Source: an uncultured Spirochaetota bacterium
GTDB lineage: Bacteria; Spirochaetota; Spirochaetia; SZUA-6; Fen-1364
Assembly (NCBI GenBank): GCA_963781885.1
Contig: CAWAHW010000007.1
Coordinates: 448,001-512,000, forward strand
Direction: 5' to 3'
Length of the DNA: 64,000 bases
The notes under the pieces are model-generated. The model worked only from the letters and a program-made list of their open reading frames with translations, made no database searches and was not told the DNA's origin. Shown here in pieces: positions 4,170-35,539 of this stretch; positions within the stretch are counted from its first letter, which is position 1; each line of letters opens with the position of its first letter. The translations under genes were made by a program, and so were the position numbers.

Positions 4170-4331
4170 TCGTATTCTCCTTCTGCCCGGCATTCCGTGC
4201 CCGTGCCGGCCGCTCTGACCCTGTACGCTCGCTCACCGAATGGTTATGATCGGGCGTACCCAACGGCTTGCGGCGTCGGGTGTGTGCTCTTGCAGGCTCG
4301 CCCCGGCGCCGCGGCTGTTCTCTCACTTGCC

Positions 4332-17606: not shown

Positions 17607-17839
17607 GACATTCCTCCTTGGCGATCACTATATTTCAATTATATGCGTCCCCCTCATCGATTGCACGTTGAAATCCTGGAAACGGCATCCCCCTCGGCCG
17701 CAGGGAAGAAGCTCTTGTCTTGGAATTTCGGCATATTCCACGGTTTTCCCGCGGTCGGCGGCCCTTCCAAACTCTGCATAAATATGCATGAGATGTATTG
17801 ACCATGCCTCGCGCGGCATGCGATAACTGCCCCACGACG

Positions 17840-20800
17840 ATGGACACCAGACGCTCCGAGAATTTGCCCGAATCCGACCCGCGCGCGCGCAGCCAGAGGG
17901 AAGGGCTGTACGATCCTTCCTTCGAGCACGCCAGCTGCGGGGTGGGTTTCGTCGTGAATGTCGACGGGAGGCGCACGCACCAGATCGTCGCCAATGGCAC
18001 CACGATATTGAAGAACCTCGCGCACCGCGGCGCCGTGGGGGGAGACTCCCGCACCGGCGACGGTGCGGGCATGCTCACGCAGGTCCCCCACCGCTTTTTC
18101 GCGCGCGAGGCCGGGCGCCGGGGCTTCGCGCTGCCGGCCGAGGGAAGCTACGGCGTGGCCATGCTTTTCCTTCCGCAAGACCCGGACAGGCGCGACAAGG
18201 CGCGCGCGCTCTTCGAGCGCGTCGTAACCGCGGAGGGCGGCACCGTCCTGGGGTGGCGGGAGGTCCCGGTGAATCCCGAGCTCCTGGGGGAGCTGGCCGT
18301 GCGCTCCATGCCCTCCATCCAGCAGGCCTTCACCTCGTGCGGCCAGATGTCCGGGGACGCCCTCGAGCGGCGGCTCTACATCATTCGCAAGGCGGTGGAA
18401 TCGGCGGCCCTCGCGGACGGATTCACGATGGAGGAGCTCTACGTCAACTCGTACTCCTCCCGCACCGTCGTGTACAAGGGCATGTTCGTCGCTCCCCAGT
18501 TCGAAAGCTTCTACCCCGACCTGCGGGACCCGGATTTTGAAAGCGCCCTCGCGGTGATCCACCAGCGCTACAGCACGAACACGTTCCCCTCCTGGCCGCT
18601 CGCGCAGCCCTTCCGCATCATCGCGCACAACGGGGAGATCAACACCCTGCGGGGCAACATCAACAAGATGAATGCCCGGGAGCAGACCATGTCCTCCCCG
18701 CTTTTCGGGGACGAGATCGAAAAGCTGCGGCCGGTGATCCAGCCCGGCCAGAGCGATTCGGGGATATTCGACAATGTCCTCGAGCTGCTCGTGGCGGGCG
18801 GCAGGTCGCTCGAGCATGCCCTCATGATGATGGTGCCGGAGGCGTTTGGCGCCCGCTATCACATGAGCGAGGACAAGCGCGCCTTCTACGAGTACCACGC
18901 GGCCATCATGGAGCCCTGGGACGGGCCCGCGGCCATCTCCTTCTCCGACGGCATCAAGGTGGGATCCATCCTGGACAGGAACGGCCTGCGGCCGGCGCGG
19001 TGGGTCGTCACGCGCAGCGGCCTCGTGGTCCTGGCCTCGGAGGTGGGGGTGCTTGACATCCCGCCGGAGGACGTCCTGCAGAAGGGGCGCCTGGCGCCCG
19101 GCAAGATGTTCCTTGTCGATACCGCGCAGAAGCGCATCGTCTACGACCACGAGGTGAAGGCCGCCGTGTCGCGCCGAAAGCCGTACCGGCGGTGGGTGGA
19201 ATCCAATCGCATCGAGCTGAAGGGCCTCTTCCAGGTCTCGGGCCCCGTGCGGACCGACCGGGAAAGCCTGCTCGCCCAGCAGTGGGTGTTCGGCTACACC
19301 ATGGAGGACATCGACATGATCATCATGCCGATGGTGGAGACCTCCCAGGAGCCCATCAGCTCGATGGGAAATGACCAGAGCCTCGCGGTCCTCTCCGAAA
19401 GGCCGCAGCTGCTCTATTCCTACTTCAAGCAGCTCTTCGCCCAGGTCACCAACCCGCCCATCGACCCTTACCGCGAAAACCTCGTGATGTCGCTCATGAG
19501 CTACGTCGGCCGGGAGCAGAACCTTCTCGACGAGACGCCCGAGCACGTGCGGCAGGTGAAACTCCCGCACCCCGTGCTCTCCAACGACGATGTGGCGAAG
19601 CTGCGCACGCTCGACGTGGGCGGCTACCGCTCCTGCGTCATCCCCATGACGTTCGCCGCCGCCGACGGCGTGGCGGGTCTCGCGAAGGCGGTCCAGCACC
19701 TCTGCGCCTCCGCGGAGGCGCGCGTCGACGCCGGGGACACCATGCTCATCCTCACCGACCGCGACGTCGGTGAGAAGCGCGCACCCATTCCCGCGTTGCT
19801 GGCCACCGCGGCCCTCCACCATCACCTCACCCGGGTGAAAAAGCGGCACCTCACGGCGCTCGTCATCGAGACGGCCGAGGCGCGCGAGGTGATGCACTTC
19901 GCCACGCTCATGGGCTTCGGCGCGAGCGCCATCAACCCCTACCTCGCCATCGAGACCATCGCCGACTTGAAGGCGCGGGGGCGCCTGCCCGGCTCCCTGA
20001 CGCAGGAGACGGCGATCGAGCATTACATCACGGCCGTGAAGAAGGGCCTCCTGAAGGTCATGTCCAAGATGGGCGTCTCCACCATCAGGAGCTACAAGAG
20101 CGCCCAGATCTTCGAAGCGGTGGGGCTTGCGGATGACTTCGTGAAGGATTATTTCCCCGGCACACCCTCGCGCATCGGCGGCATTAGCATCGAGGGGATC
20201 GCGCGCGAGGTCCTGGCGCGGCATGCCGCCGCGTACTGCCGCACGCCCGCGGAGCGCGAGCGGTTGGACTCCGGCGGCGCGCTGCACTACCGCAGCTTTT
20301 CGGAGCACCACCGTCTCACCCCGCAGGCCATCGCGCTCCTCCAGCGCGCCGTGCGGGAGAACGACTACGGCCTGTACAAGCAGTACGCGGCGGGGCTCAA
20401 CGACGAGGGCCGCGCGCTGTGCACGCTCCGCGGATTGTTTGCATTCGCCCCCCGGACGCCCGTTCCCCTGGACGAGGTGGAACCGGTGGAGACCATCGTG
20501 AAGCGCTTCGTCACCTCCGCCATGTCCTTTGGCTCGATCAGCAAAGAGGCGCACATGACCCTCGCCATCGCCATGAACAGGTTGGGCGCGGCGAGCAATT
20601 CCGGCGAAGGCGGGGAGGACGAGGCACGCTACGCGCCGCTTGCCAACGGCGACTCGGCGCGCAGCGCGATCAAGCAGGTGGCATCGGCCCGGTTCGGCGT
20701 CACCTCGAACTACCTGGTGAACTCACGCGAGCTGCAGATCAAGATGGCGCAGGGGGCGAAGCCCGGCGAAGGCGGGCAGCTTGCGGGTCTGAAGGTGGAC

Positions 20801-22423
20801 GGCGAAATCGCGAAGGTCCGGCATTCCACCCCGGGGGTCACCCTGATCTCCCCGCCGCCGCACCACGACATCTATTCCATCGAGGATCTCGCGCAGCTCA
20901 TCTTCGACCTGAAGAACGCCAACCCCGAGGCGCGCATCTCCGTGAAGCTCGTCGCCGAGGTCGGCGTGGGGACCATCGCCGCGGGTGTGGCCAAGGGCAA
21001 GGCGGACATGGTGCTGATCGCCGGCCACGACGGCGGCACCGGCAATTCGCCCATCTCCTCCATCAAGCACGCCGGCATCCCGTGGGAGATCGGGGTCGCC
21101 GACACGCAACAGACGCTCGTGTTGAACCGGTTGCGGGACAGGATCCGGGTGCAGGCCGACGGCCAGATGCGCACGGGACGCGACGTGGTGATCGCGGCGC
21201 TCCTGGGCGCGGAGGAGTACGGCTTCGGCACCGTGTCCCTGGTCACCATCGGCTGCATCATGATGCGCAAGTGTCACCTCAACACCTGCCCCGTGGGAGT
21301 GGCCACGCAGGACCCGCGCTTGCGCGCGCGCTTCACCGGCAAGCCCGAGCATGTCGTGAACTTCATGCGCTTCGTCGCGCAGGACGTGCGGGAGACGATG
21401 GCCGCGCTGGGCTTCAGGACCGTGGACGACATGATCGGCCACGTGGAGGTGCTGGAGACGCGCGCAGCCGTCGAGCATTGGAAGGCGCGCGGCCTGGACT
21501 TCTCCCGCATCTTCATGAAGCCCGAAGTCCCGGCGGGCACTTCCCTCCGCTGCACGACGAAGCCCGTGCATGATTTCTCCCTGTCGCTCGACAAGGACCT
21601 CATCCTGCGCTCCCGGCCCGCGCTGGAGCATGGTGAGAAGGTGCGACTGTATCTGGGCATCCGCAATTGCAACAGGACGGTCGGTGCGACCCTCTCGTCA
21701 GAGGTTTCCAAGCGCTACGGGGCAAAGGGGTTGCCCGACGACACGATCAATGTCTCATTCACCGGGTCCGCCGGCCAGAGCTTCGGCGCTTTTCTCGCCC
21801 CGGGCATCACCTTCGAGCTTGAAGGCGATGCGAACGACTATTTCGCCAAGGGTCTCTCCGGCGGGAAAATCGTCGTCTATCCGCCGCGCGCCGCGACATT
21901 CCGCGCCCGGGACAACATCATCACCGGCAATGTGAACCTCTTCGGCGCCACCGGCGGCGAGGTGTACATCAACGGTATGGCGGGCGAGCGCTTCGCCGTG
22001 CGCAACTCCGGCGCGACGGCGGTCGTGGAGGGGCTGGGCGATCACGGCTGCGAGTACATGACGGGCGGGCTCGTGGTCGTGCTGGGCCGCACGGGCGTGA
22101 ACTTCGCGGCCGGCATGAGCGGCGGCATCGCCTACGTGCTGGACGAGGACCAGCTCTTCGACAACAACTGCAACCTGGAGATGGTGGACATCGAGCCCAT
22201 CACCTCCCCGCGCGAGCGGGAGCGCCTGCGCGATCTCGTGGAGCGCCACGTCATGTACACGCGCTCCGAGCACGCCACCCGGATCCTGCGGGACTGGGAC
22301 GAGATGGCGCCGCGATTCGTGAAGGTCATGCCGATCGACTATCGCCGGGCCCTGGAAAGGATGGCGAAGGACCAGTCGCGGGAGACGGAGGTCGTGGGCC
22401 TCACGGAAGAGGTGTATCGCTGA
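17840..22423 (+). CDS. gltB: Glutamate synthase large subunit
   Basis: [68 protein letters not shown]-terminal domain. Confidence 0.97.
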
Positions 22424-23847
22424 TGGGCCATCCCTCGGGTTTCCTCGACCATCCCCGCGTCTCCTACAGCCTGCTTCCGGTGGACGAGCGCGTGAAGAGC
22501 TGGCGGGAGTTCACCGTGCCCGTGCCGGACGCAGAGCTTGCGCGCCAGGGATCCCGCTGCATGGACTGCGGCATTCCCTTCTGCCACTCCACCGGTTGTC
22601 CCGTCTACAACCTGATCCCCGAATGGAATGACCTCGTCTACAAGGACGACTGGAAAGAGGCGCTCGTGCGCCTGGAGATGACGAATAATCTCCCCGAGGT
22701 GACCGGCCGCATCTGCCCCGCCCCCTGCGAAGCATCGTGCACACTTTCGATCAACACGAGCCCCGTCACCATCAAGCAGATCGAGCTTGCCATCGTGGAG
22801 CGCGGTTGGAGCGAGGGATGGATCGAGCCTCGGCCGCCCGCGCATCTCAGCGGCAAGCGTGTCGCCGTGGTGGGAAGCGGCCCTGCCGGTCTTGCCGCCG
22901 CGCAGCAGCTTCGCCGCGCCGGCCACGACGTGACGCTTTTTGAGCGCTCGCTGAAGCTCGGCGGCCTCCTGCGCTACGGCATCCCCGACTTCAAGCTGGA
23001 GAAGAAGGTCCTCGATCGGCGCATCGCGCAGATGGAGGCGGAGGGCGTGCGTTTCGAGACGGGGGTCACCATCGGCGAAGACATCTCCGCGCGGTACCTG
23101 CGCGGCAGTTTCGACGTGATCCTCCTCACCATGGGCGCGGGCGAGCCCCGCGACCTGCCGGTGCCCGGGCGGGAGCTTTCCGGCGTGCATTTCGCCATGG
23201 ACTTCCTGGGACGGTCCAACCAGCTTCTGGCCGGCGAGATCAGGGAGTCGGAGCTCATCAGCGCGCGCGACAAGGTGGTCGTCGTGATCGGCGGCGGCGA
23301 CACCGGTTCAGACTGCGTCGGCACCGCCAACAGGATGGGCGCGCGCGAGGTGTACCAGTACGAGATCATGCCCAAACCGCCCCAGTGGAACGAGGCCTGG
23401 AACCCGAGCTGGCCCGCGTGGCCGAACATCCTGCGAACGTCCAGCTCCCACGAGGAAGGCTGCGGCCGGGACTGGTCCATCACGACCGAATGCTTCGAGG
23501 GCAAGGACGGGCGGGTGGTTGCGGGTCATTTCGCTCGCGTGGAATGGAAGAAGCAGCCCGGCGGGGCCATGAAGATGGAGACGGTCCCCGGCACCGCCTT
23601 CACGCGCAAGGCGGACCTCGTGCTCCTGGCAATGGGTTTCGTGCACGTGAAGCATGGCAAGATCATCGACGAGCTGGGCGTGGAATACGATCCCCGCGGC
23701 AACATCCGCTGCAACCCCGACTACTCGACGTCTGTCCCCGGGGTCTTTGCCGCCGGCGACGCAAACACGGGAGCATCCCTCGTGGTCCGCTCCATATTCC
23801 ACGGCCGCGAAGCCGCGGCTTCCATCGACAGGTATCTGAAGGCGTAG
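22423..23847 (+). CDS. gltD: Glutamate synthase small subunit
   Basis: RCMDCGIPFC, TGRICPAPCE, GSGPAGLAAA, IGGGDTGSDC; TGATG coupling with gltB. Confidence 0.97.
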   Translation: MGHPSGFLDHPRVSYSLLPVDERVKSWREFTVPVPDAELARQGSRCMDCGIPFCHSTGCPVYNLIPEWNDLVYKDDWKEALVRLEMTNNLPEVTGRICPAPCEASCTLSINTSPVTIKQIELAIVERGWSEGWIEPRPPAHLSGKRVAVVGSGPAGLAAAQQLRRAGHDVTLFERSLKLGGLLRYGIPDFKLEKKVLDRRIAQMEAEGVRFETGVTIGEDISARYLRGSFDVILLTMGAGEPRDLPVPGRELSGVHFAMDFLGRSNQLLAGEIRESELISARDKVVVVIGGGDTGSDCVGTANRMGAREVYQYEIMPKPPQWNEAWNPSWPAWPNILRTSSSHEEGCGRDWSITTECFEGKDGRVVAGHFARVEWKKQPGGAMKMETVPGTAFTRKADLVLLAMGFVHVKHGKIIDELGVEYDPRGNIRCNPDYSTSVPGVFAAGDANTGASLVVRSIFHGREAAASIDRYLKA

Positions 23848-23953: not shown

Positions 23954-25831
23954 TCAGTCCGCGGCCATCACCACCCGGAATCCCTGGTCTTCGTCTTCCG
24001 TGGTCACGGGCTTGAACTGCGAGTAGCCCGCCATGAAGAACTTCGGCTTGGACAGGCGCCAGGACCCGCCGGCAGAAGCGGCAAGGTCGGTCGTCCCGTC
24101 GGCCGCCTTCCTCTGGTCGGAACACCATTCGCTCACGTTGCCCGCCATATTCTTCACCCCGTCGAGGGTGATGTCATTGAAGAACGTGAGCTCCTGCACG
24201 GGGCCGTTCTGGCCCTCGATGGGAAGCATGTCGTCCGCGGTGGAATCGGCGCACTGGCAGTACGTCGAGTCCCAGTCATTGCCCCACGGATAGTCTGTCT
24301 GGTAGTGCGCGCCGGCTGCCCAGCGCCATTGTGCCAGGGTGGGGAGGGTGACATTCACCTTGAACTTCTTGGAGAACCATTCCGTGTACGCTACGCAGTC
24401 GTCCCAGGTGACGTGGATGACGGGGTAATAACCGTAGGCGGTCCTGTAATAGCGTTCCCAGCTCCCCTGGGATTTGTAGCCGGACTGCCTCACGAAGTTT
24501 GCGAACTGATCGAAGCGCACCTCCGTCATGCCCGCCCAGAAGCTCGGGGTCTGGCCGCTTCCCTTGACGAACACAAAAGGCACATCGCCGATCTGCTGGT
24601 TGTCCTGCTCGGGCCTGTTGATCACCATATTCGCCACGCGTGTGCGTGCGCCGTTCTGCACGGCGAACTCCTTTTCGAAGACCCCGTATTTATGGGTGAT
24701 CACGATGCGATGGGTCCCCGCCGGCAGGTCATTCAGCACGAGGGTCTGCCCCGTGGCGATGCTGCCGCTTGCAACGCCATCCAGCTCAACGGTTCCTTCC
24801 ACGTTGGAATAGACCTGCGCCGATCCGCTGCCGGGAGCGCTCGGCGTCCCCGCCGGGGGCGCCTCGATGCGCGTCGTGGTGTCGATGCTCGCGCTGTACG
24901 TGGAGAGGGCGAGGTCCCCGAATGCCTCCCCGTTGTAGCTCACCGAGGGCGACTGGTCGAGCTGCTGCTCATGCGCGTAGCTGGTGACCTGCTGCTCAAC
25001 GAAATCCGACAGCTCCTTGAACGTCACGATGCCGTCGCTGTTGCCCATCTGGTAGTCGGCCTTCCCCTTCATTCCTTCCAGGAGGAACTTCGTAAAGATG
25101 CCGTGGGTGGAGTTGGGATCGTCGAAGCTCGACCAACCCGTCTTGGTGGCATAGAAGACCGCCGACACGCTCGACTGCTCGAACTTCTGCGCCCGCAGGG
25201 CCGCGTCGTTGATGCCGCGGCTTGCGCCCCGGGGAAGCGATTCGCGGCATGCATCCAGGAGGAGGAGCGATTTGCGCACCTTCAGCTTCGTGATCCAGTC
25301 CAGCACCTCCTTGATCGGGAGGCTCGTGTTCCACTTGTCGTCCTTGAGCGTGTCGGCGACGATGAGGTAGCCGTCGCCCGTCTCCTCCGTCGCGATGCCG
25401 TGACCGGCGAAGGAGAATATCACGAGGTCATTGGGGCCTATCGTTTTCGCCATGGCGGCAAGCTTCGCGCGGATGTTCGCGAGGCTCGGGTAAGAGTGGC
25501 CCTTGTCGAAGGCGGGGTCCACGTCGTCCGTCATCTTTTCCACGACGTCGAACTGACCGTACTTCTTCAGCGTATCGGCAAGCTCCGTGGCATCGGCGCG
25601 CGCCCCCTTGAGGGCAGGGATCGTCGTGTCCTGGAAATTGTTGACGCCGATGCACAGGGCATAGCGCTTGCCGGCATTGCCCGGCGTGCCCTCGATGCTT
25701 CCGCCGGCCTTCACCAGCATCAGGCCCCTGCTGCCTGCCTGGGCGCCGAGAATGACGAGCACCGCGAGAGGAAGCAGGGCGATTGCGAGCCCCCGTCGTC
25801 TCCCTTTTTTCCGTTCACGCGGTGCATCCAT
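23954..25831 (-). CDS. Exported caspase-family (peptidase C14) protease with PEGA and FGE-sulfatase (CLec-fold) domains
   Basis: Signal or anchor LAIALLPLAVLVILGAQA; YALCIGVNNF, FSFAGHG (His), LLLLDACRE (Cys), HGIFTKFLLEGMKG; PEGA VYSNVEG.VELDG..LPAGTHRI; FGE PVIHVTWDDC, LPTLAQW, MAGNVSEW, GGSW, GFRVV. Confidence 0.88.
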   Translation of the reverse strand: MDAPRERKKGRRRGLAIALLPLAVLVILGAQAGSRGLMLVKAGGSIEGTPGNAGKRYALCIGVNNFQDTTIPALKGARADATELADTLKKYGQFDVVEKMTDDVDPAFDKGHSYPSLANIRAKLAAMAKTIGPNDLVIFSFAGHGIATEETGDGYLIVADTLKDDKWNTSLPIKEVLDWITKLKVRKSLLLLDACRESLPRGASRGINDAALRAQKFEQSSVSAVFYATKTGWSSFDDPNSTHGIFTKFLLEGMKGKADYQMGNSDGIVTFKELSDFVEQQVTSYAHEQQLDQSPSVSYNGEAFGDLALSTYSASIDTTTRIEAPPAGTPSAPGSGSAQVYSNVEGTVELDGVASGSIATGQTLVLNDLPAGTHRIVITHKYGVFEKEFAVQNGARTRVANMVINRPEQDNQQIGDVPFVFVKGSGQTPSFWAGMTEVRFDQFANFVRQSGYKSQGSWERYYRTAYGYYPVIHVTWDDCVAYTEWFSKKFKVNVTLPTLAQWRWAAGAHYQTDYPWGNDWDSTYCQCADSTADDMLPIEGQNGPVQELTFFNDITLDGVKNMAGNVSEWCSDQRKAADGTTDLAASAGGSWRLSKPKFFMAGYSQFKPVTTEDEDQGFRVVMAAD

Positions 25832-25832
25832 G

Positions 25833-28568
25833 TCAGAATCCGATCGCGTACCCGACGCTGACCGTCAGGCTCCAGCTCCCCATATAGGAGCTCTCGTTGA
25901 AGTAGTCCAGACCCAGCGACAACCCGTCTTTTTTCTTCGCGTTGAGGAAGACCATGCTCCCGCCCAATGTGACGCCGCTTCCGTATCCGACGTCGACGGT
26001 GTAGAGGAGGCTGCCGCGGGACGGGTTCCCGAACATCAGGTCGAGCGTCACGGCCCCGCCACCGGAGCTACTGGAGCTTCCGTCGAGGTAGTCAATAAAG
26101 GCGCCCGCCCCTACTCCGAACCCGGGAAGGAAATGCCAGTAAAGCTGCGCGGCGCCGGCGAGCGCAAAGACGGTGCTGCTGGAGTAGCTGTGGGAGGAGT
26201 AGCTGTACGTTTCCGTGCTGCCCGCGCCAAGGCCTGCCGCGAGATTCAGGAAGAACGCCGCGCCGCCCGTGGACGCCACTGCCGCAGTCTTGGGCCGTTG
26301 CCCGGAGGCTCCTTGGCCGGCAAGATTCGGGAAAGCCGCCTGGCCCGTCAGGTTCGTAAACGCCGCCAATTGGGCTGCGCGCGCCGCGTCCTGCCGCTGC
26401 TCGTATTCCTCCGCGCTCTGGTCTGCCAGGGCCCTGAGGTTTGCAAGGTCCACGAAGGCGATCACGTCTTTTTCCGGCACGATCTGGCTCTTGCTGAAAT
26501 CGTAGGTGAAGCCGTGCCAGGATGAATATCGATTGTCCTTGGAGTATCCCCGTGTCCAGACGGTGTAGGTGACCTGGGGATGCGCCTCCCAGTCATCCTG
26601 CGAGTATTCGCTCGCGATCGTGATCTTTTCCTTGTCGGCCCAGTGGAACTCATCCGTCGTGAGCGACCCGTCGTCGACGTCGATGTCCCCCGCGTATCCG
26701 AAGCCCGGCTTCAGGATGAGAGTCACCTTGGTCGTTTTCGGCGATAGGATCTGTTGTTTCTCCTGCAGCCCGAAGTCGGCGATCTGGATCTTCACATCCT
26801 TGGGATCGCGGACGACCACCGGCAGGGGCTTGCTTTTCACGGTGAGCTTCGTCGAGGTGTACCAGATGCCCGTGATTCCGCTCAAGCCTTCGGGAGGATT
26901 GCGCGTGGCGGTGATGTCGTAGGCGGAAAGGGGGACGCCGCTGATGAGAATGTCCTGCGTCTCGTAACGGTACTCCGCGTGCACCGATCCGGAGTTTTCC
27001 GTCCCGTTGTCTCCCGGTGTCTTTCCCATTTCCCAGGTCGCCGTGCCATTGTCGAACGTGACGGTAAAGGAAGGCTCGGGCATGGGAGGATCGAATATTT
27101 CCCACCAATACTGCTCATTCTGCTTTCTCGGTATCGCCGCGAAGGTGTACGAGGTCGTCGGACCGATGCCGCCGATGGTGATGCTTCCGTTGGGCGTTTC
27201 GATATGATCCCGCAGGACGACGATGTTCTTTACGTCGCCCGCATTGATGGTGAACGGAATCTCCTTGATCTGCTGCGTGCTCCTGTTGTAGACGGAGATG
27301 ACGTACTGGCCCGGGAGCGTCCAATAGAAGACGTCGGGATTCACCTTGCGCTTGTCGGAATTGTCCGAGTCCCCGACGGTGTTGTCGTCTTTTTCCACCT
27401 GGCGCGGCTGCCAGAAGAGGTAGTAGTGTCCGTTCGCATAGGACAGGTCTGGCTGCCCATTGCTGCCGGCATCGCCGGTTCCCGCGCCGCCCGCGCCCGC
27501 GACATCGGGGCTTTCAGTGATGGTCAGCTGCGCGCAGTGGGCGTTCAATATGTCGATCATGATGTGCTGGCATATCTGGGCACAGGCGACCGGAAGGTCG
27601 TGAAGGTCCTTGTCGACAATGGCCGAGTACGAGTAGACCTCTTCGGCCCGTTTCGTGTTGAGCACGCGCACGTTGAAGCCTATCGCGTCCCGGGGGCTGC
27701 CCGGACTTGCTTCCTTGTGCTGGAGCAAGCTGTCGGCAGGAGATGCGTTCTGCGGCGAGTCGGAGCCGGTTTCATAGACATTGCCCAGCACGAGAAAATC
27801 GAGGTCCGCGAAATTAAACGCCCCGACCGCTTTCGTATAGAGGTCCTTCACCGTGAATGTGCCGTTTTGCAGCGCATTTTCGACGTATTTCTTGTCAAAT
27901 ATCTTGAAGATGGACGGGAAATAGAGGCGCGCGATCTGCCCCCCCGCGATGCGCGCGAGCTCCTGAGCCCCCTGCAGGGTTACGGCCACCTCGTTCGCCG
28001 CTTTCACCGCATCCTGCATGGCCAGCTTCTGCTTTTCAAGCCATGACTGCTGGAGCGCCTGGGCTGACTGCTGGGCCGATTTCGCCTTCGCCTGCCGATC
28101 CCGCGCATCGTCCTTTGCACTGGACGTGGTGGCTTTTGCCAGGTCGTCCGATGCGGCCTTGAAGTCATCAGTCGCCTTTGCGTAGTCGTCCGACGCCTCG
28201 GCGTACCCGAGGCCGGCATTCTTGTAGTCCGCGGCTGCCTTTGTGTAATCCCCGGCGGCAACGGCTTTCGGGTCTTTCGGGAAGGTGAAGGTCATGCCGG
28301 GCTCGTACACCGGCGCTCCGGGGACGATGTGGCTGTCCTTCATCGTGTAGACTACGTTCGCGGCATTCTGCTGGACCAGCACCGACAGGAGGGCCTGGCT
28401 GATGAGCTGTCCATAGAACTGCTTGCTCGGCGCCCTGTCCGCTGCGCTCATGGAGACCTCGAAGTCCGCCACGGCGAGCGTCGGCGGATCCAGGTAGGTG
28501 TAGTCGCGGGCGAACGCCGCTCCCGTGAACAGGAAACACGCTGCGGCAATAAGAAGTGCACGCTTCAT
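25833..28568 (-). CDS. Large exported protein: CsgG/TolB-N-like domain with coiled-coil insert, beta-rich middle and probable C-terminal outer-membrane beta-barrel
   Basis: AGGAGG SD; signal peptide ending AFA; PTLAVADFE..ISQALLSVL..DLDFLVLGNV..FNVRVLNTKRAEEV; alternating strands ending SLTVSVGYAIGF. Confidence 0.65.
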   Translation of the reverse strand: MKRALLIAAACFLFTGAAFARDYTYLDPPTLAVADFEVSMSAADRAPSKQFYGQLISQALLSVLVQQNAANVVYTMKDSHIVPGAPVYEPGMTFTFPKDPKAVAAGDYTKAAADYKNAGLGYAEASDDYAKATDDFKAASDDLAKATTSSAKDDARDRQAKAKSAQQSAQALQQSWLEKQKLAMQDAVKAANEVAVTLQGAQELARIAGGQIARLYFPSIFKIFDKKYVENALQNGTFTVKDLYTKAVGAFNFADLDFLVLGNVYETGSDSPQNASPADSLLQHKEASPGSPRDAIGFNVRVLNTKRAEEVYSYSAIVDKDLHDLPVACAQICQHIMIDILNAHCAQLTITESPDVAGAGGAGTGDAGSNGQPDLSYANGHYYLFWQPRQVEKDDNTVGDSDNSDKRKVNPDVFYWTLPGQYVISVYNRSTQQIKEIPFTINAGDVKNIVVLRDHIETPNGSITIGGIGPTTSYTFAAIPRKQNEQYWWEIFDPPMPEPSFTVTFDNGTATWEMGKTPGDNGTENSGSVHAEYRYETQDILISGVPLSAYDITATRNPPEGLSGITGIWYTSTKLTVKSKPLPVVVRDPKDVKIQIADFGLQEKQQILSPKTTKVTLILKPGFGYAGDIDVDDGSLTTDEFHWADKEKITIASEYSQDDWEAHPQVTYTVWTRGYSKDNRYSSWHGFTYDFSKSQIVPEKDVIAFVDLANLRALADQSAEEYEQRQDAARAAQLAAFTNLTGQAAFPNLAGQGASGQRPKTAAVASTGGAAFFLNLAAGLGAGSTETYSYSSHSYSSSTVFALAGAAQLYWHFLPGFGVGAGAFIDYLDGSSSSSGGGAVTLDLMFGNPSRGSLLYTVDVGYGSGVTLGGSMVFLNAKKKDGLSLGLDYFNESSYMGSWSLTVSVGYAIGF

Positions 28569-28586
28569 GGCTGGTACCTCCTGCAC

Positions 28587-30977
28587 CTACTTGAGCGGGA
28601 AATCCTGCTTGAACTCATAATCCCCACTGTTGACGTTCACCACGGACACTTGGAGTGAATCCGGATCCGACGCCACCAGGGGGAAGTAACGCGCGATGGG
28701 AGACTTGGAGGGTGGCTGGATGTAGGCCGAAGATGGCACAGCCGTCTCCAGCAATGAGAAATAGATGATCTTGTCGACTCCATAGTACGACTTCAAGGTC
28801 GTGATTGTCGCGGCAGGCGCAACGGGCGCAGCAGGCGCTGCCGCCGCAGCCCCGGCCGTTGTCGCCGATCCCGCGGCGGGAGCCGCGGCAGGCGCAGCGG
28901 GCGTCACGGGTGGAGGGGCCATCGAAATCCACTTGGAGATCAGGAGAGGCGACAGATAGAGCATTTCCTCCGTGTCCGCGTCCGTATTCGCCGCCTTGGG
29001 GTTCGCCAGACGCACCGATTTCAGGATCAGGTAGCGCGAGTACAACGATTCCATCTTTTCATTCGGCGCCGCGTCACCCGCGACGAGCGCCGTGCACAGC
29101 CCGTCCTCGAACCACGTCTGCATCAGGTTGATCGCGACGGTCAGGTTGAGCTCCTGGGTCGGAGTCAAGGTGTCCTCCGCCTTTTTCTTGCCGCCGAATC
29201 CCATCTTCGACCAGAACGACGGGGGCACTTTGGGAATGGGCTCACCGAACGTGCGCAGGACCTCGTAGGCGTCGAAGTAGCTCATCATGAGCGCCTGCTG
29301 GTCGCTGCCCGGCGGGATCCTGTTGAGGATGAAGTCCTCTGCGGACGGCTTTTCATTCCCCGGTGTCTGACCTGCCGTGATGTCGCTGATGTAGTTGTTG
29401 GCGATCTCCATGCGGCGATTGATGAGGGCGGTATGGGTTGTGTCGGTGACGACGCCCGCGCTCCGCAACGCATCCGCGAGCCCCGTGAACGACCGTGTGC
29501 GCGCGAAGCAGCGATAGAGCACGCTCTGATCCAGCTCCGCATCCGTGCCGAGCGTGAGGAAATCGCTGAGCACGACACGGCCGTTGTCGGCCATGTCGAT
29601 GATCTTGATGTAGATACCCAGAATCTTGCCGCTCAGCTCCAGGTCCTTTTCCCCCTGGAGGAGCTGCACGCCCTGGATCTTCTTCCACAGCACCCGGTAG
29701 CCGATCATGTACTGCGCGCCGTAGTAGTTCTTGAACTGCGTATAGTCTCCGCCGAGGACGGGGTTGATGTAGTGCACGGCGTGTGCAAGCTGCCAGGGCT
29801 GCTTGTACTGCCGGGGGAAGAGCTTGTCGACGATTGTGACGGTCTGGGTGGAGGAAAGCTGGAATGACCCGAAGAAGCCTTCCAGCGCGTTCTCCACCGC
29901 GAAGTCCTCCCTCGTGATGGGATACGATCCAAAGATCGGGATGTCGTCGATTTTCATGAGCACGGCTGTCATCGAGCGCACACCCTGGTCCCGAAGGGAA
30001 CGGACGAAGGCGTCTTTCTGGGCGCTGACGGCCTGCGGCGGGATGGTGAGCCGAAGGGTGCCGAGGAAGGGAGTCTTTTCCTTCGGGAACTTGTCCGAGA
30101 GCAGGCTCTTTGTTCCGCTCCACAGGATCTTTCCGCCCCGCGCGATATCGATGAGACGGAAGCTCACCTGGATGCCGACGTAATCCATCATGCCCATGGC
30201 GACAACGTTGTTGATCGAATACATCAGAAGCTTCGAGATCTTGTTCGGATCGTAGGTCTTCTGGACGTTGCTCCACGTGCTGAAATTGATCATGTCGGTG
30301 CCGAAAACCAGTCTGCCCGCGAGCAGATCCTTCAAGCTCTTCTGCGATTCATCCGGAACGTCCTTCAGGTCCATGGCGGGGGTCACCAGGCGTTCGAAGC
30401 CCTTCCCCTGCTTCTTGAGCACGGCGCTGAGAAGGCCGCTTTCGAACGAGTCAATGAAATAGGGGTTGGCCTTGACAAATTCGTTCAGGGAAAAATTGCC
30501 GAGCCCTGAATACCCGGCGCCCGCGAGCGTGCGCCCCAGGAGGAGCTCGTCGTACTTGTCTCCGCTGGTCTTCAGCTTATAGACCTTCTTGCCGCTGTCC
30601 AGAGAGAACAGGTCGCTGAGTATCTTCACCTCGGGAATGGGGCCGTTGGGGCTCGTCTCCCGGGGCTTGAACAGCTTCTGGACGTTGGGCTGGATGATTC
30701 CTTCGAAGTCCTCCTGCTTCACCTCCAGCGGGGTCGGCACGAAACGCCACGCGTCGGCTCCGTAGAACGCGGGCATGTTGGCGAGCAGGATGCGGTCTCC
30801 CCGCTCCACGAATTGATCGACAATCGGCTGCAGCGCGTCCTGGGCCAGCTTGTAGACGTCGGAGTTGTTGATGGCTTCGAGCTTCGACGGCTCCGGGGGC
30901 GTCGACTTGCAGCCGACGAAGACTGCGAAGACGCAGAGCACGACGGCGGGAACGGCGACACGGCGGCCTGTTCGCAT
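28587..30977 (-). CDS. Lipoprotein with three tandem CsgG/LpoB-like domains
   Basis: AAGGAGG SD; lipobox FAVFVG-C; three units ending VSFRLIDIARGGKILWS, IYIKIIDMADNGRVVLS and VSVVNVNSGDYEF. Confidence 0.65.
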   Translation of the reverse strand: MRTGRRVAVPAVVLCVFAVFVGCKSTPPEPSKLEAINNSDVYKLAQDALQPIVDQFVERGDRILLANMPAFYGADAWRFVPTPLEVKQEDFEGIIQPNVQKLFKPRETSPNGPIPEVKILSDLFSLDSGKKVYKLKTSGDKYDELLLGRTLAGAGYSGLGNFSLNEFVKANPYFIDSFESGLLSAVLKKQGKGFERLVTPAMDLKDVPDESQKSLKDLLAGRLVFGTDMINFSTWSNVQKTYDPNKISKLLMYSINNVVAMGMMDYVGIQVSFRLIDIARGGKILWSGTKSLLSDKFPKEKTPFLGTLRLTIPPQAVSAQKDAFVRSLRDQGVRSMTAVLMKIDDIPIFGSYPITREDFAVENALEGFFGSFQLSSTQTVTIVDKLFPRQYKQPWQLAHAVHYINPVLGGDYTQFKNYYGAQYMIGYRVLWKKIQGVQLLQGEKDLELSGKILGIYIKIIDMADNGRVVLSDFLTLGTDAELDQSVLYRCFARTRSFTGLADALRSAGVVTDTTHTALINRRMEIANNYISDITAGQTPGNEKPSAEDFILNRIPPGSDQQALMMSYFDAYEVLRTFGEPIPKVPPSFWSKMGFGGKKKAEDTLTPTQELNLTVAINLMQTWFEDGLCTALVAGDAAPNEKMESLYSRYLILKSVRLANPKAANTDADTEEMLYLSPLLISKWISMAPPPVTPAAPAAAPAAGSATTAGAAAAAPAAPVAPAATITTLKSYYGVDKIIYFSLLETAVPSSAYIQPPSKSPIARYFPLVASDPDSLQVSVVNVNSGDYEFKQDFPLK

Positions 30978-31190
30978 GACACCCTCCTTGGCTCCCTCGA
31001 GATTCATTCCATGGACGAGGGGAAAGAGAACAATACTGTCAGGCGCCGATCCGGTGACGTGTCATTGTCTGAGTGAGGACGGAGCGGGACCCGATGGACC
31101 GCTCCCTGTGCATTCTCATTGACACTTCACCAATCGACTGCTGCTGAATAACCTGACCGTACCACCCCGTGACGGCCTCGTCAAGGCGTC

Positions 31191-33212
31191 TTAGGGGGGC
31201 ACGATCACTTCCCAGGTGTCGAAGTCTTCCGAGATGCCTTTTGCCGTGATGCGGCCCGCGAAACGGGTGCTCACCGCCTCTTTCACCGCGTCGTAGACCG
31301 GCGCGCTCACCAGGACGCCGTCCACGGGAGCCTTGCTTTCCAGCCGTGAGCCGAGGTTCACGTTCGCGCCGATGGCGGTATAGGCCATGATGCGGCGCGA
31401 GCCCATGTCCCCGACGACCGCCTCGCCCGTATTGATGCCAATGCGGATGTGGAGCTGCGCCCGCCCCTCCGCCTCCCAGCGCTCCCGCAGACCCCGCAGG
31501 GCTTGCTGCATCTCGATGCCGGTCCGCACGGCGCGCAGCGCGTGGTCGCTCTGGGGGAGCGGATCGCCGAAGAATGCCATGAGTCCGTCGCCGATGAACT
31601 TGTCCACCGTGCCTTCGTGGCGGAAAACGATCTCCGTCATCACCTCGAAATACTCGTTGAGCGTGCGGTGGATCGCATCCGGCGTCTGGGTGGTTGACCA
31701 GGAGGTGAAACCCGAGATGTCGCTGAACAGCACCGTGATCACCTTCTGGTCCGCCGTCATGAGCCTGTCCTGGCTGGCGAGGATCTTCGTCATGAGCTTG
31801 GGGGCGAAATAGCGCTCCATGCGCAGCCGGAAGGCGAGCTTCTCCCTCTCCGAGAGGAGGAACCGGTACGCGTTTACTGCGATCAGGAGCAGCACCACGC
31901 CGAGGGTGGGCGCCGCGAGCGTCGGCATGATGCCGCCCGCCGCGAAGAGCCAGAACTCCGCCGCGACGAGGGCCGCCCAGGCGAGCAGGCAGAGCAGCGA
32001 GCAGGCAAGCGGGCGCAGGCGCCACGCGAAAAACCAGACCAGCGCGGCAAACGCCGCGTTCAGGATGAGCACCATCCACCACGCGGGGGCGCGCAGGAAG
32101 CGATCCGAGAGAATGCTGTTGAGGACGTTCAGGTGGAGGCCCGCCTTCGGGTAGACCTGCTCGAATGGGGTCGGACCGTAGTCGGCGCCGCTCGTCGTGA
32201 TGTCGGCGACAAGGACATGCGCGCTGTCCATCACGGACGCCGCCTGGTCGGCCACGTCGGGGTCGTTCTCCGCCTGCAGGAGACCGGCGAACGAAGACCG
32301 CGCGAAACCTGCGCCCCAGGGTCCTGCAAAATCGACGATCATGCGGCCGTTGCGGTCTATGGGTATCGATACGTCCCGCGTGGTGCCGTCCGGCATCTTC
32401 GCCCCCGGCAGGCGGAGAGTGGCGCCGAAGGAGACCTCGATCGTCGACGGGTCCACCTGGAGGGCGTCCGTCGCCGCCGCCAGCGCGAGGCTCGGCATGT
32501 AGCCGTCCCCGTAGCGAATGAGAAGGGGCATGCGCCGGTAGACACCGTCGGGGTCGGGCTCGCTGTCGTAATGCGCGATGCCGCGCGCGGCGGCCGTCAG
32601 GGCGGCAAAGCTCACGGTCGACGAGCGCGCGGTGAGGGGACTGCCGGCGCGGAGGATTTTCGGGTGCCACAGCCACCGCGCCAGAGGATCGGGGCCCGTC
32701 GGCGCCGGTGCGGCGAGCTTGTCGTATGCAAGCGGCGGAAGGAGGGCCGGAAGGATCACGTTCCCCGCCCCGGCGACCGCCGCGACGAACGCCGCGTCCC
32801 CGTCCGGCAGTCCCTGCTCGGGGAAGTCGATGTCGAAGATGATCGAGGAGGCACCGGCGGTGGAGAGCACCCTCACGAGCTGGGCGAAGTCGCGGCGGTC
32901 GCCGGTTTTCATCCCGAGCGTGCGCAGCTCGGAATCGCTCAGGTCGACGTGGTTGATGGAGGGGGCGATCTTCTCCGTTCCCCGAAGACGGTAGCGGAGC
33001 TGGAAGAAAAGGTCGTTGAGACGGTTGTTCCAGTCGCCGCGAATGCCGGCCGCCGCAAGCGACAGCACCCAGGCGAGGCCGAGACAGAGCGCGACGATGA
33101 GGGCGAAGGTGAGCCCGGTCCGGCGATCAGTGCTCGAGCCGGAAGATCTTGCTGTAGTACCCCGCGGCGTCGATGCGGGTTGCGAGCTTTGCGATTGCGT
33201 CGTTGATGCCAC
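31191..33212 (-). CDS. CHASE2-domain class III adenylate cyclase
   Basis: CHASE2 motifs IIFDIDF, PDPDGVYRRMPL, PSLALAAA, IPIDRNGRMIVDF; three TM helices; VLFSDISGFT, DKFIGDGLMAFFG, RIGINTG, YTAIGANVNLGSRLE (Lys and Thr specificity residues point to ATP). Confidence 0.92.
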   Translation of the reverse strand: MASTTQSQSSQPASTPRGTTARSSGSSTDRRTGLTFALIVALCLGLAWVLSLAAAGIRGDWNNRLNDLFFQLRYRLRGTEKIAPSINHVDLSDSELRTLGMKTGDRRDFAQLVRVLSTAGASSIIFDIDFPEQGLPDGDAAFVAAVAGAGNVILPALLPPLAYDKLAAPAPTGPDPLARWLWHPKILRAGSPLTARSSTVSFAALTAAARGIAHYDSEPDPDGVYRRMPLLIRYGDGYMPSLALAAATDALQVDPSTIEVSFGATLRLPGAKMPDGTTRDVSIPIDRNGRMIVDFAGPWGAGFARSSFAGLLQAENDPDVADQAASVMDSAHVLVADITTSGADYGPTPFEQVYPKAGLHLNVLNSILSDRFLRAPAWWMVLILNAAFAALVWFFAWRLRPLACSLLCLLAWAALVAAEFWLFAAGGIMPTLAAPTLGVVLLLIAVNAYRFLLSEREKLAFRLRMERYFAPKLMTKILASQDRLMTADQKVITVLFSDISGFTSWSTTQTPDAIHRTLNEYFEVMTEIVFRHEGTVDKFIGDGLMAFFGDPLPQSDHALRAVRTGIEMQQALRGLRERWEAEGRAQLHIRIGINTGEAVVGDMGSRRIMAYTAIGANVNLGSRLESKAPVDGVLVSAPVYDAVKEAVSTRFAGRITAKGISEDFDTWEVIVPP

Positions 33213-33777
33213 GCGTTCCTCCCGCGATGGTCACCGGCTTTTCCGCCGCCGCGGCGAGCGCGCTGTGCTGCTGGTTGAGGCGCTTGATCTCGTCCAGCAC
33301 CGCCTGCCGGGCGGCGGCTTTCGCCGCGGCCGTCGATCCCTGATTCGAAGCGGTTTTCTGGAGCGTCGTGAGGAGCGACTCCAGCGTCCGCAGCCGCTCG
33401 GACGACGCCACCAGGTAGAAACGCTCGGTGCCTTTTGCGCTGTCGAGCGTGAACCAGTCATCCCCCTCGGGGATGAAATAGCGGCTCTGGGCGTAGGATG
33501 CCTTGCCGAACAGGTCGAAGGAGTCGGGGAAGAGAAGCTGCGTGTCGTCGCTCGCGTCTTGGAGAATGAGATAGACGAACGACGAGGCGGCCGGGGCGAT
33601 GTGGATCTTGAAAAGGTCTCCCGGCTTGATGTTGACCTTCTCCGAGAAGTTGATGGGGACCGCGGAGCCGTCCGCGGCGCGCTTGACGAATGCCCAGGTG
33701 AAGGAAAGCTTCGCTTCCTGTGCGGCAATCCCCGCCGCGACGAGAAGCAGGAGGAGGACGGCCGTCGTTCTTCTCAT
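33127..33777 (-). CDS. DUF4384-like exported protein
   Basis: Signal peptide; GDLFKIHI...FVYLILQD...LLFP...YFIP...FTLD..KGTERFYLVAS pattern. Confidence 0.78.
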   Translation of the reverse strand: MRRTTAVLLLLLVAAGIAAQEAKLSFTWAFVKRAADGSAVPINFSEKVNIKPGDLFKIHIAPAASSFVYLILQDASDDTQLLFPDSFDLFGKASYAQSRYFIPEGDDWFTLDSAKGTERFYLVASSERLRTLESLLTTLQKTASNQGSTAAAKAAARQAVLDEIKRLNQQHSALAAAAEKPVTIAGGTRGINDAIAKLATRIDAAGYYSKIFRLEH

Positions 33778-33786
33778 GGCGCCATC

Positions 33787-34377
33787 TTACTCCTCTCCCG
33801 GAGGGGACGCAAGCGGAGACGGGAAAAAGAACAGGAGCCCCAGATCAAATCCGAGGGTATAGTAGATCGTGTCGGACTGGAGAGAATAGTACAGGTTGAA
33901 GGTGGGTCCCACGCTGAAGGAAACGGAGGGGTTCAGCCTCAGCGCGAGCCCGGCATTGAGCTCGGTCCAGAAGCCGGGAACGGAAGAATCCGAGGTTGAC
34001 TGTCCCGACGACGACGATCCCTGGAAACTGAGCTCCACCGCCGTGGTGTCGCGGAGAAATGGCATGGCGTCCCCGAAGGAAAAATACATGCCTGCCTGGA
34101 AACCGGGAGAGACGTCGAGGTACCAGCTGCCGTTCTGCGTGGCGTTGTTTTGCGTGCTCGAGTAGGTGACCGAAATATACGGGCCTATTTCGAACAGGCG
34201 GCTCGTGAAGAATCCGCCCCAGCCGTACAGGCTGAAGCTGCTGGTCGGCGCGGCGCTGGAGAGGGGTATGCTTGCCCACCCGCCCGTGCCGCCCTGGATG
34301 ATTCCCCCGCCGCTTTCCTGCGCGCCGGCGAGCATCGGGATGGCGAAGATGATGACCGTAAGGGCGAAGCGCTTCAT
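33787..34377 (-). CDS. Small outer-membrane beta-barrel protein
   Basis: AAGGAG SD; signal peptide ending AGA; about eight amphipathic Gly/aromatic strands, last YTLGFDLGLLFFF. Confidence 0.65.
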   Translation of the reverse strand: MKRFALTVIIFAIPMLAGAQESGGGIIQGGTGGWASIPLSSAAPTSSFSLYGWGGFFTSRLFEIGPYISVTYSSTQNNATQNGSWYLDVSPGFQAGMYFSFGDAMPFLRDTTAVELSFQGSSSSGQSTSDSSVPGFWTELNAGLALRLNPSVSFSVGPTFNLYYSLQSDTIYYTLGFDLGLLFFFPSPLASPPGEE

Positions 34378-34522
34378 AGGCACTCCTTCTCGGACGCGGA
34401 TTCGTCTTTCACTCGTTCGACGGGACGGTGCATCCCGATCGTACATCAACCGCCCGGCTTTCCGCAACACGCGGGGGATGCAACGTGGACGAGACTGTCC
34501 CGGTCATATATGCTCCCCGCTG

Positions 34523-35539
34523 ATGAACGAGGTCCAGATCGTAAGGTTTGGCGGACCCCCGGTTCTGCGGCTCGTGGAACGGCCGTCACCGGCCCTGACG
34601 GCCGGACACGTACGGATCACGGTAAGCGCCGCCGGGGTGAATTTCGCCGACGTGCAGATGCGCATGGGTCTGTATCCCGAGGCTCCCCGTACCCCCTTTG
34701 TGCCCGGCTTCGAGGTTGCCGGCGTCATTTCCGAGGTGGGCCCGGAGGTGACCTCCTTCCGTCGCGGCCAGCGGGTGCTGTCCATGTGCCGCTTCGGCGG
34801 CTATGCCGATGAGATCGTCCTGCCGGCAGCGCACGTGCGGCCCACGCCGCGCAGGCTGTCCGACAAGGAGGCGGCGGCGATTCCCGTCGCATTCGCCTCC
34901 GCGTGGATCGCCCTGATGGACATGGCGCGGATCCGCGAAGGCGACCGCATCCTCATCCCCGGCGCCGCGGGCGGTCTTGGAACGGCCATGGTGCAGATCG
35001 CGGTCAAGGCAGGCGCGCAGGTGGTCGGTCTCGTCGGAAGCAGCGGGAAAAAAGAGCTCGTGCGGTCGCTGGGCGCCGCGGAAGTGCTGACGTATGACGA
35101 GCTTCAGGCGCGGGACGGCGGCTACGGCCGGGATTTTTCCGTCATCGCCGAACCGCGGGGGGCGCGGGCGCTGAAAGACTCCATGCGGCGATTGGCCCCG
35201 GGCGGCCGGGTGGTGAGCTACGGGGTTTCTTCCATAGTGACGGGTTTGCGTCGATCCATTCCGCGTACGCTCCTCTGGCTTCTCCGCACCCCGCTCTTCA
35301 CGAATATCGGCCTGCAAATGGCAAACACGGGGCTCATTGGCCTGAACATGCTGAAGCTTTTCGACACCGAGCTTGGGCAGGACATGCTCATGCGGGCCAT
35401 GGATACGGTGCTGGAAGGATTCGAGACAGGCGCGTATAAGGCAGTCGTCGCCAAGTCCTTTGCCCTTTCAGATGCAGGTGCCGCGCAGGAGTTTCTCCAG
35501 AGCGGAAAAAGCGTCGGCAAGATTGTCTTAGTCTGCTGA
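34523..35539 (+). CDS. MDR-family NADPH:quinone oxidoreductase (VAT-1-like)
   Basis: AAGVNFAD, PFVPGFEVAG, FGGYA, GAAGGLG, GKSVGKIVL. Confidence 0.88.
   Translation: MNEVQIVRFGGPPVLRLVERPSPALTAGHVRITVSAAGVNFADVQMRMGLYPEAPRTPFVPGFEVAGVISEVGPEVTSFRRGQRVLSMCRFGGYADEIVLPAAHVRPTPRRLSDKEAAAIPVAFASAWIALMDMARIREGDRILIPGAAGGLGTAMVQIAVKAGAQVVGLVGSSGKKELVRSLGAAEVLTYDELQARDGGYGRDFSVIAEPRGARALKDSMRRLAPGGRVVSYGVSSIVTGLRRSIPRTLLWLLRTPLFTNIGLQMANTGLIGLNMLKLFDTELGQDMLMRAMDTVLEGFETGAYKAVVAKSFALSDAGAAQEFLQSGKSVGKIVLVC

Follow-up and report, generated by a model that had tools for sequence, protein, structure and literature searches.

In a stretch of 64,000 nucleotides from an uncultured Spirochaetota bacterium (NCBI GenBank assembly GCA_963781885.1, contig CAWAHW010000007.1, positions 448,001 to 512,000 of the forward strand; hereafter the window), a gene cluster encodes a secreted caspase-like protease, a small secreted DUF4384 protein and a CHASE2 nucleotide cyclase. 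We tentatively read these three as a periplasmic module in which the DUF4384 protein is cut at R189-G190. A caspase-like protease with specificity for Arg/Lys, either the FGE-fused one of this cluster or a paralogue, would cut itself during maturation at R205/G206, the equivalent of the intersubunit linker, and after its signal peptide. In the periplasm such a protease would cleave the DUF4384 partner at R189/G190, and the cleaved partner would hold the CHASE2 domain differently, which would change the output of the cyclase. We judged this mechanism to be the likeliest because the DUF4384-CHASE2 pair repeatedly has a C14 peptidase gene as a neighbour, and these peptidases differ in architecture. 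The motifs, their conservation, their location in loops and the linkage of the genes are observations, and from them we infer every proteolytic step and the effect on signalling.

We know of almost nothing about the targets of bacterial caspase homologues. What CHASE2 domains sense is still not known, according to PMC5192318. If the module works as we read it, the input of CHASE2, at least in Spirochaetia, would be a protein partner set by proteolysis, and the envelope would hold a relay from caspase to cyclic AMP (cAMP). The idea in its general form, that periplasmic caspase-like proteases switch second-messenger synthesis by a cut in the invariant Arg-Gly loop of the DUF4384 protein that accompanies CHASE2 cyclases, we regard as unlikely. 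The leads that we take from the analysis are that the small DUF4384 protein is a near-obligate secreted partner of CHASE2 cyclases (26/31 loci), that the secreted C14 family has two conserved Arg/Lys-Gly sites, which are candidate maturation sites, and that an invariant Arg-Gly loop together with recurrent protease genes nearby makes the link from protease to cyclase directly testable. The striking identity of seven residues between the protease and the DUF4384 protein should not be read as a code.

Arg-Gly sites in the DUF4384 protein and in the protease

The DUF4384 protein matches PF14326 over residues 51-127 (35.6 bits, cut-off 27), and all of its named homologues are labelled as DUF4384 domain-containing. 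The AlphaFold2 (AF2) model, with a predicted local distance difference test score (pLDDT) of 88.9, has a signal peptide, an immunoglobulin-like (Ig-like) beta-sandwich, a helical hairpin (residues 130-174) and a C-terminal strand-loop-helix-hairpin. The blocks that cover residues 171-190, and with them the loop that carries R189, have a mean pLDDT of 70-76, the lowest of the mature protein. Foldseek against the PDB returned nothing at an expectation value (E) of 0.001 or below. In the wide search with VIA-align, the best match was the Ig-like AGS-C domain of a Pycsar cyclase (Z 6.3, root-mean-square deviation 3.1 over 106 residues), followed by filamin, S-layer and macroglobulin-type domains at Z 5-6, with all of the matches in the noise range of the tool. 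As modelled, the fold is a generic Ig-like sandwich and nothing more specific. Since residue 216 is still covered by the fold alignments, the two final strands (200-215) are part of the sandwich.

The Arg of the loop is the most constant part of the motif. We collected 129 homologues, 105 of them close and 24 from related genomes, with the family consensus EKPVTIAGGTRGIN. R189 is present in 127 of them, the two exceptions being fragments, and it is followed by G190 (117), by I, V, L or M at position 191 (109) and by N192 (76). Past this point the sequence is looser, with E 34, A 29, T 23 and D 17 at position 193 and A 49, S 30 and T 20 at position 194. R189 was also invariant in an alignment of 58 sequences. 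A profile search of 1.84 billion representatives gave 4567 relatives at E<=1e-3, of which 292 also pass E<=1e-30, and from these we built a wide alignment of 149 of the best representatives (50% identity). Position 189 is basic in 147/149 (R 139, K 8; the other two are Val) and position 190 is small in 135/149 (G 110, S 19, A 6). Ahead of the pair, G186 is kept in 143/149, and position 188 usually carries a hydrophobic residue (F 34, V 33, I 28, L 15; also T 17). Insertions of variable length, up to about ten residues, follow the motif in the relatives.

Further towards the C-terminus of the same protein, Y208 and the last residue, His216 (codon 33130-33132), are also invariant in the 58-sequence alignment, and the wider relatives often have a single extra polar residue after His216. 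The conserved C-terminal His suggests that the C-terminus itself may be recognised by something.

The protease has an N-terminal signal or anchor helix, a Peptidase_C14 domain (residues 55-298; PF00656, 79.9 bits, cut-off 21.4), a middle part rich in beta structure and an FGE-sulfatase / SUMF1-like domain (PF03781, 81.1 bits against a cut-off of 23.3, residues 428-621). The pLDDT of its AF2 model is 84.2. Among solved structures the only relative of the caspase domain was TbMCA2, a weak match (E 0.0015) to the first half of the domain. The catalytic dyad is H144 and C195, with the Cys in the motif LLLDAC; the Cys is found in 61/61 homologues and the His in 60/61, and an alignment of 54 sequences shows no variation at either, nor at D193, two residues before the Cys. 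An acidic residue at that position is typical of Arg/Lys-specific metacaspases, whereas caspases have Gln. With D193 the protein has this feature of the metacaspase/orthocaspase subtype, which supports an earlier note on this DNA in its comparison of the protease with meta/orthocaspases.

Ten residues after C195 there is a short conserved motif. P1 is basic in 59/61 homologues (R 39, K 20), P1' is small in 60/61 (G 38, A 13, S 9), and P2' is hydrophobic in 59/61; N (20) or S (15) comes next, with no conservation further on. P2 is Ser in 40/61. The closest homologue reads SRGINDS and others read SRGLSDT, SRGLDNT, SRGLTDD or SRGFAKN, while a distant clade has [GN]K[GA][IVM]N. Away from its ends, the caspase domain drops below pLDDT 50 in the AF2 model only at residues 198-210, directly after the strand of the catalytic Cys. 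A basic site after the Cys is not special to the FGE-fused subfamily: [RK][GSA]-hydrophobic occurs within 21 residues after the Cys, most frequently at +10, in 31 of 37 spirochaetal C14 homologues (background about 17%), and the remaining six still have [RK]-G in that stretch.

The protease has a second site of this kind right after its signal peptide, where the earlier note had seen a weaker GSRGL. The peptide is there, at residues 33-37, and it is not weak: of the 58 homologues aligned there, 55 have a basic residue in the first position of the pair (35 R, 20 K), G follows in 54/58, and L, I or V comes after that. In the AF2 model R35 lies at the junction between a disordered segment (28-34, pLDDT below 50) and a strand (37-40). 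The two sites switch between R and K together, with 31 homologues (R,R), 17 (K,K) and 5 mixed, but this amounts to few independent events because the pattern follows clades.

Orthocaspases cut after basic residues, and self-cleavage of MaOC1 is needed for its activity, as stated in a review (PMC5756287). Because of the conservation, the disordered loop and this orthocaspase precedent, we read R205/G206, and perhaps R35/G36, as maturation sites, and R205 is probably where the protease would process itself. For the linker, then, autoprocessing as proposed in the earlier note is supported by the basic residue at Cys+10 and by the low-confidence loop; the longer GINDA sequence that the note attached to the site has no such support.

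The shared RGINDA peptide

The protease reads LLLDAC up to C195, then RESLPRGAS, R205 and GINDAALR, and the DUF4384 protein reads EKPVTIAGGT, R189 and GINDAIAKL. Both peptides are where the earlier note had put them, on the minus strand (Table 2). RGINDA occurs at these two sites only in the window, as judged by a search with the back-translated pattern, and at two sites only in the six-frame translation of the 4.64-Mb genome. The DNA of the two copies is identical at 16 of 17 nucleotides with unrelated flanks. We rejected gene conversion or a shared DNA segment as the origin: the identity is 17 nucleotides of the genome's preferred codons (GGC 0.49, ATC 0.76, AAC 0.68, GAC 0.64), and it follows from the use of these codons in both copies.

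An identity of this length is ordinary. With a crude gene call, an exact hexapeptide outside low-complexity sequence was common to 15 of 861 gene pairs in the window, and all of these look random; the call missed the DUF4384 gene, so the pair of interest is not among the 15. Over the whole genome, a common hexapeptide was seen in 562 of the 28,865 pairs of genes that lie within 10 kb of each other. A scan of a window will therefore meet such matches, and the RGINDA peptide was itself picked because it matched. By itself, the identity of six residues is not beyond chance. That each copy coincides with conserved positions of its own family, on the other hand, is more than chance.

The earlier note had taken the peptide further, as an extended R/GINDA code common to protease and substrate, co-evolving in the two and yielding identical GINDA N-termini after cleavage. 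An exact identity of six to seven residues with only two occurrences in six frames of the genome does speak for this, and so does the nearest relative, in which the two motifs are still alike. However, SRGINDA is found in 1/61 protease homologues and TRGINDA in 1/129 DUF4384 homologues, and the one protein with the motif is each time that of the window. We compared the motifs in orthologous pairs (Table 1; genomes are labelled G and loci L, and G000 is the window's own genome). The residues after R-G do not co-vary and differ between the two proteins in G019, G001, G033, G049 and G032. The DUF4384 protein stays at TRGIN[EA][AST] while the protease linker drifts, and K-type proteases are paired with R-type DUF4384 proteins. 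The note had itself named a lack of conservation or co-variation as the result that would overturn the code, and for all positions past R-G-hydrophobic this is the result obtained. Identical GINDA N-termini would be a peculiarity of this one genome, and we consider a GINDA code very improbable. The identity of seven residues is a lineage-specific coincidence on top of a genuine shorter motif, in which Gly (or Ser/Ala) follows a basic residue and precedes a hydrophobic one.

Table 1. Linker motif of the protease and loop motif of the DUF4384 protein in genomes that have both
Genome	Protease motif	DUF4384 motif
G000 (window genome)	SRGINDA	TRGINDA
G005 (nearest relative)	SRGINDS	TRGINEA
G019	SRGLDNT	TRGINAT
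G001	SRGLTDD	TRGINAS or TRGMKTS
G033	SRGFAKN	TRGSGTD
G049	SKSLKSG or SKGLKAG	YRGDDTI or FRGMGDQ
G032	TKGVGNA	FRGLDKT or WRALLDE

Neighbourhoods of the DUF4384 gene and the weight of the reading

We looked at the genes up to 10 kb away from the DUF4384 gene on either side, both in the window and in 30 other loci, of which 20 are from relatives and 10 from other families of the phylum. The gene immediately downstream encodes a CHASE2 protein in 15/20 and 10/10 of these and in the window, which makes 26/31, and the two genes overlap or are tightly coupled in most loci. We also predicted the complex of the DUF4384 protein (residues 21-216) with the periplasmic part of the CHASE2 protein (residues 58-392). 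This gave weak support: the score was 0.40 against 0.15 for the best control, where the pass mark is reached by 58/80 solved complexes and by 2/110 mismatched pairs, and a pass at a score of 0.60 or under is found in only 7 of those 80 complexes and in both mismatches. Between runs, 60% or more of the contacts agree, and the partner has a pLDDT of 70 or higher; the output lists no contacts, so R189 cannot be placed in this prediction. From gene order and the predicted complex, the DUF4384 protein is most likely the periplasmic partner of the CHASE2 sensor, and that the two touch physically seems to us quite probable. We found no description of a DUF4384-CHASE2 pairing in the literature searched, which left supplementary tables outside its scope, and a search for papers on CHASE2 together with the CHAT domain returned no papers.

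Protease genes recur beside this pair. A C14-like open reading frame (ORF) is present in the fetched region in 11/20 and 2/10 of the loci and in the window, i.e. 14/31. Pfam confirmed C14 in 7 of the 9 ORFs tested, and by sequence the remaining two are of the same subfamily. The genome has 7 C14 matches in its 4.64 Mb, so about 3% of 20-kb regions would be expected to contain a C14 gene by chance. The genomes are related, so the locus counts overstate independence, and we argue for a repeated association because the C14 architectures vary. There are at least four of them near the DUF4384 gene. The FGE-fused type is found in the window and in L062, a type of 531-638 aa in L069 and L070, and NNPF and WD40 types in L063 and L101. 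The fourth type has a C-terminal barrel-like domain and lies upstream of the DUF4384 gene, directly so in L071, L072, L076 and L079 and with a gap of 1.4-2 kb in L074, L075 and L077. All of these architectures have the His, the Cys, the Asp at Cys-2, [ST]-R-[GS] near Cys+10 and R-G after the signal peptide.

The barrel-fused proteins (L071:6485-7954, L072:5641-7062, L076:5797-7320, L079:8281-9963, and similar) are about 470-560 aa long, and their C-terminal 170 residues are like a small outer-membrane beta-barrel that ends in ...EYAF or ...VYTF. Going by sequence, the fusion would place the caspase domain at the outer membrane.

Proteases of other classes are also found next to the DUF4384 gene. 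In L064 an orphan DUF4384 gene, without CHASE2, is followed by a Peptidase_M48 gene of about 370 aa (3670-4797, Pfam-confirmed), and in L066 such an orphan is followed by a gene (10567-11661) that appears homologous to the L064 neighbour, judged by its N-terminal sequence. L063 has a DUF4384 gene and then a Peptidase_C1-DUF4384 fusion (5704-7113), and two C14 genes precede them.

A number of observations weigh against cleavage of the DUF4384 protein as part of a module. Each proteolytic step is one that we infer. The residue before the Arg differs, being Ser in 40/61 of the proteases and mostly hydrophobic in the wide DUF4384 family, and beyond the basic-Gly-hydrophobic core there is neither conservation nor co-variation between the two proteins. 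The DUF4384 motif is part of a conserved strand-turn, I-A-G-x-x-R-G (G186 in 143/149), which also fits a structural or binding role. Since strands 200-215 belong to the sandwich, a cut at R189 would free no peptide by itself. No C14 gene is in the fetched region in 17/31 loci, and G092, which is 98% complete, keeps the DUF4384-CHASE2 pair with the motif AGVSRGM and has no match to PF00656 or PF12770. In G001 the cyclase, p806, p917 and protease genes form a block without the DUF4384 and 227-aa genes; at L103 (G001:C102, 12000-15028, to be compared with 33127-35539 of the window) the CHASE2 cyclase gene comes immediately after an oxidoreductase gene, and two paralogues of the small DUF4384 protein are elsewhere in that genome. 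G033 has the DUF4384 and protease blocks on different contigs. From these two arrangements, linkage of the FGE-fused protease to DUF4384 is seen in one genus only. At the level of whole genomes, C14 is present in 52/61 related genomes, in 23/23 of those with a match to the small DUF4384 protein and in 29/38 of those without; because C14 is common in these genomes, such co-presence is weak evidence.

It is possible enough to be taken seriously that there is no proteolytic link at all. R189-G190 would then serve structure or CHASE2 binding, the R-G sites of the protease would be its own affair, and the resemblance would be chance at every level. The frequency of common hexapeptides in the window (15/861 gene pairs) and of [RK][GSA]-hydrophobic (0.86% of positions) fits this, as do the conserved strand-turn and the persistence of the motif in G092, with neither a C14 nor a CHAT gene, and in the loci without a nearby C14 gene. 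The pairing of DUF4384 with CHASE2 (26/31) is also far tighter than the association with a caspase gene (14/31). On the other side, a C14 gene within about 10 kb in 14/31 loci is to be set against the 3% or so expected, and the genes are of several unrelated architectures, with other protease classes also adjoining the DUF4384 gene. R189 is replaced only by K (8/149), apart from the 2 Val, and no loop of the mature protein is modelled with lower confidence than the one that carries it. In addition, DUF4384 is known attached to proteases and to a protease substrate, as described in bioRxiv 10.1101/2022.08.17.504292. We keep the module with cleavage at R189-G190 as our tentative reading; that it is a C14 peptidase which cuts at R189 we consider doubtful.

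The same motif and linkage evidence would also suit a DUF4384 protein that is not consumed as a substrate. As an inhibitor, decoy or pseudo-substrate, it could fill the active site of the protease with its R-G loop and silence the enzyme, with release by a signal or by the CHASE2 partner; a decoy had also been offered in the earlier note. The structured context of the motif, with the later strands part of the fold, suits a stable loop like that of a canonical inhibitor. The differing P2 residues between the protease's own sites and the DUF4384 site count against such a fit, and nothing here separates a decoy from a true substrate. We consider a decoy improbable.

Known systems and the gene cluster

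Animal caspases are activated by a cut in the intersubunit linker, about a dozen residues after the Cys (Cys163 and Asp175 in caspase-3). The protease of the window resembles their zymogens in that its candidate site lies in a flexible loop just after the strand of the catalytic Cys, with pLDDT below 50. It differs in having Arg/Lys rather than Asp at P1 and in being periplasmic, and dimerisation or a cascade is unsupported here. With MaOC1 of Microcystis aeruginosa and the metacaspases (MEROPS C14) it shares the His-Cys dyad, the Asp two residues before the Cys and the expected cleavage after Arg/Lys. Unlike them, it is secreted and has an FGE-sulfatase-like domain, its candidate site is only at Cys+10, and there is a second conserved site at the mature N-terminus.

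Associations of C14 with FGE, with CHASE2 and with DUF4384 have already been catalogued, as described in PMC3501461 and PMC7475262. These sources report caspase-CHASE2 and caspase-FGE-sulfatase fusions in cyanobacteria and other bacteria, 33 sequences with the C14-FGE architecture in a published survey, and a Trichodesmium fusion in which the caspase domain is predicted to be cytoplasmic. The same domains associate in the window (C14, CHASE2, FGE-sulfatase, DUF4384), but C14, DUF4384 and CHASE2 are here separate secreted or membrane proteins of one cluster.

In Craspase (type III-E CRISPR), the caspase-like Csx29 cleaves Csx30, and some Csx30 C-terminal domains are DUF4384, according to bioRxiv 10.1101/2022.08.17.504292. 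The likeness is the link between a clan CD protease and a protein with a DUF4384 domain, whose cleavage in a linker would relay a signal. In the window, however, the proteins are periplasmic rather than cytoplasmic and the output is a CHASE2 cyclase rather than a sigma factor. A Pfam scan of six proteins of the cluster found no TPR-CHAT protein, Cas7-11, Csx30 N-terminal domain or RpoE partner.

For CHASE2 kinases, secreted partners of the FecR type are already known: PMC5192318 describes operons of Burkholderiales with a FecR/LysM protein and a CHASE2 histidine kinase. As in the window, the gene just upstream of that for the CHASE2 sensor encodes a small secreted protein. In the window the partner is of the DUF4384 type (at E<=0.01, Pfam found in it only DUF4384 and no FecR domain), the output is a class III cyclase, and protease genes recur nearby, so that the resemblance is in gene arrangement only.

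Table 2. Features of the window discussed in the text
Feature	Coordinates	Strand	Remarks
Caspase-like protease, secreted, 625 aa	23954..25831	-	Pfam PF00656 + PF03781
Linker motif S204-R205-G206-I-N-D-A	25202..25222	-	candidate autoprocessing site R205/G206, 10 residues after C195; R205 codon 25217-25219, C195 codon 25247-25249
N-terminal motif G33-S-R35-G36-L37	25721..25735	-	second conserved [RK]-G-[LIV] site, directly after signal peptide
p917, secreted, 917 aa	25833..28586	-	no Pfam family
p806, lipoprotein-like, 806 aa	28587..31007	-	no Pfam family; first gene of p806-p917-protease block
CHASE2 adenylate/guanylate cyclase	31191..33212	-	Pfam CHASE2 127.1 bits, Guanylate_cyc 86 bits
DUF4384 protein, small, secreted, 216 aa	33127..33777	-	Pfam PF14326
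Motif T188-R189-G190-I-N-D-A	33196..33216	-	loop between strand 178-181 and helix 191-197; candidate cleavage/binding site; R189 codon 33211-33213
Small outer-membrane-barrel-like protein, 227-aa ORF	33787..34470	-	internal signal peptide; upstream of DUF4384 gene
Glutamate synthase large + small subunits	17798-23847	+	just downstream of protease gene, opposite strand

The features of the cluster are collected in Table 2. The cyclase combines a class III cyclase domain with a CHASE2 domain that lies in the periplasm, flanked by membrane helices, and its Pfam scores identify it as a CHASE2 sensor with a class III nucleotide cyclase. The listed ORF begins with a GTG that is 86 nt inside the DUF4384 gene (33127-33212, minus strand), and there is no ATG before the first membrane helix, so the start codon is uncertain.

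The p806, p917 and protease genes are spaced 0-1 nt apart in the window, with the p917 stop 1 nt from the protease start, and 183 bp separate this block from the cyclase gene. The order is also kept in G019, G001 and G033, and p917 is always immediately upstream of the protease orthologue. Neither p917 nor p806 has a Pfam match. The C-terminus of p917 resembles an outer-membrane barrel and ends in ...GYAIGF, while its N-terminal part is acidic, Ala-rich and coiled-coil-like. p806 carries a signal like that of lipoproteins (...VFVGC) and a linker rich in Ala and Pro. A scan of the cluster proteins as other possible substrates found no [RK]G[ILVMF] site in p917 or in the 227-aa protein, one in p806 and three in the cyclase, of which only AAARGIAHY (R210) is in the periplasmic part.

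The 227-aa protein has an Autotransporter match that is below threshold (17.7 bits, Pfam cut-off 26). That it might be the split-off barrel of the caspase-barrel fusions seen elsewhere was unsupported, with an hhalign probability of 2.8%. On the other side of the cluster, the glutamate synthase genes beside the protease gene are ordinary.

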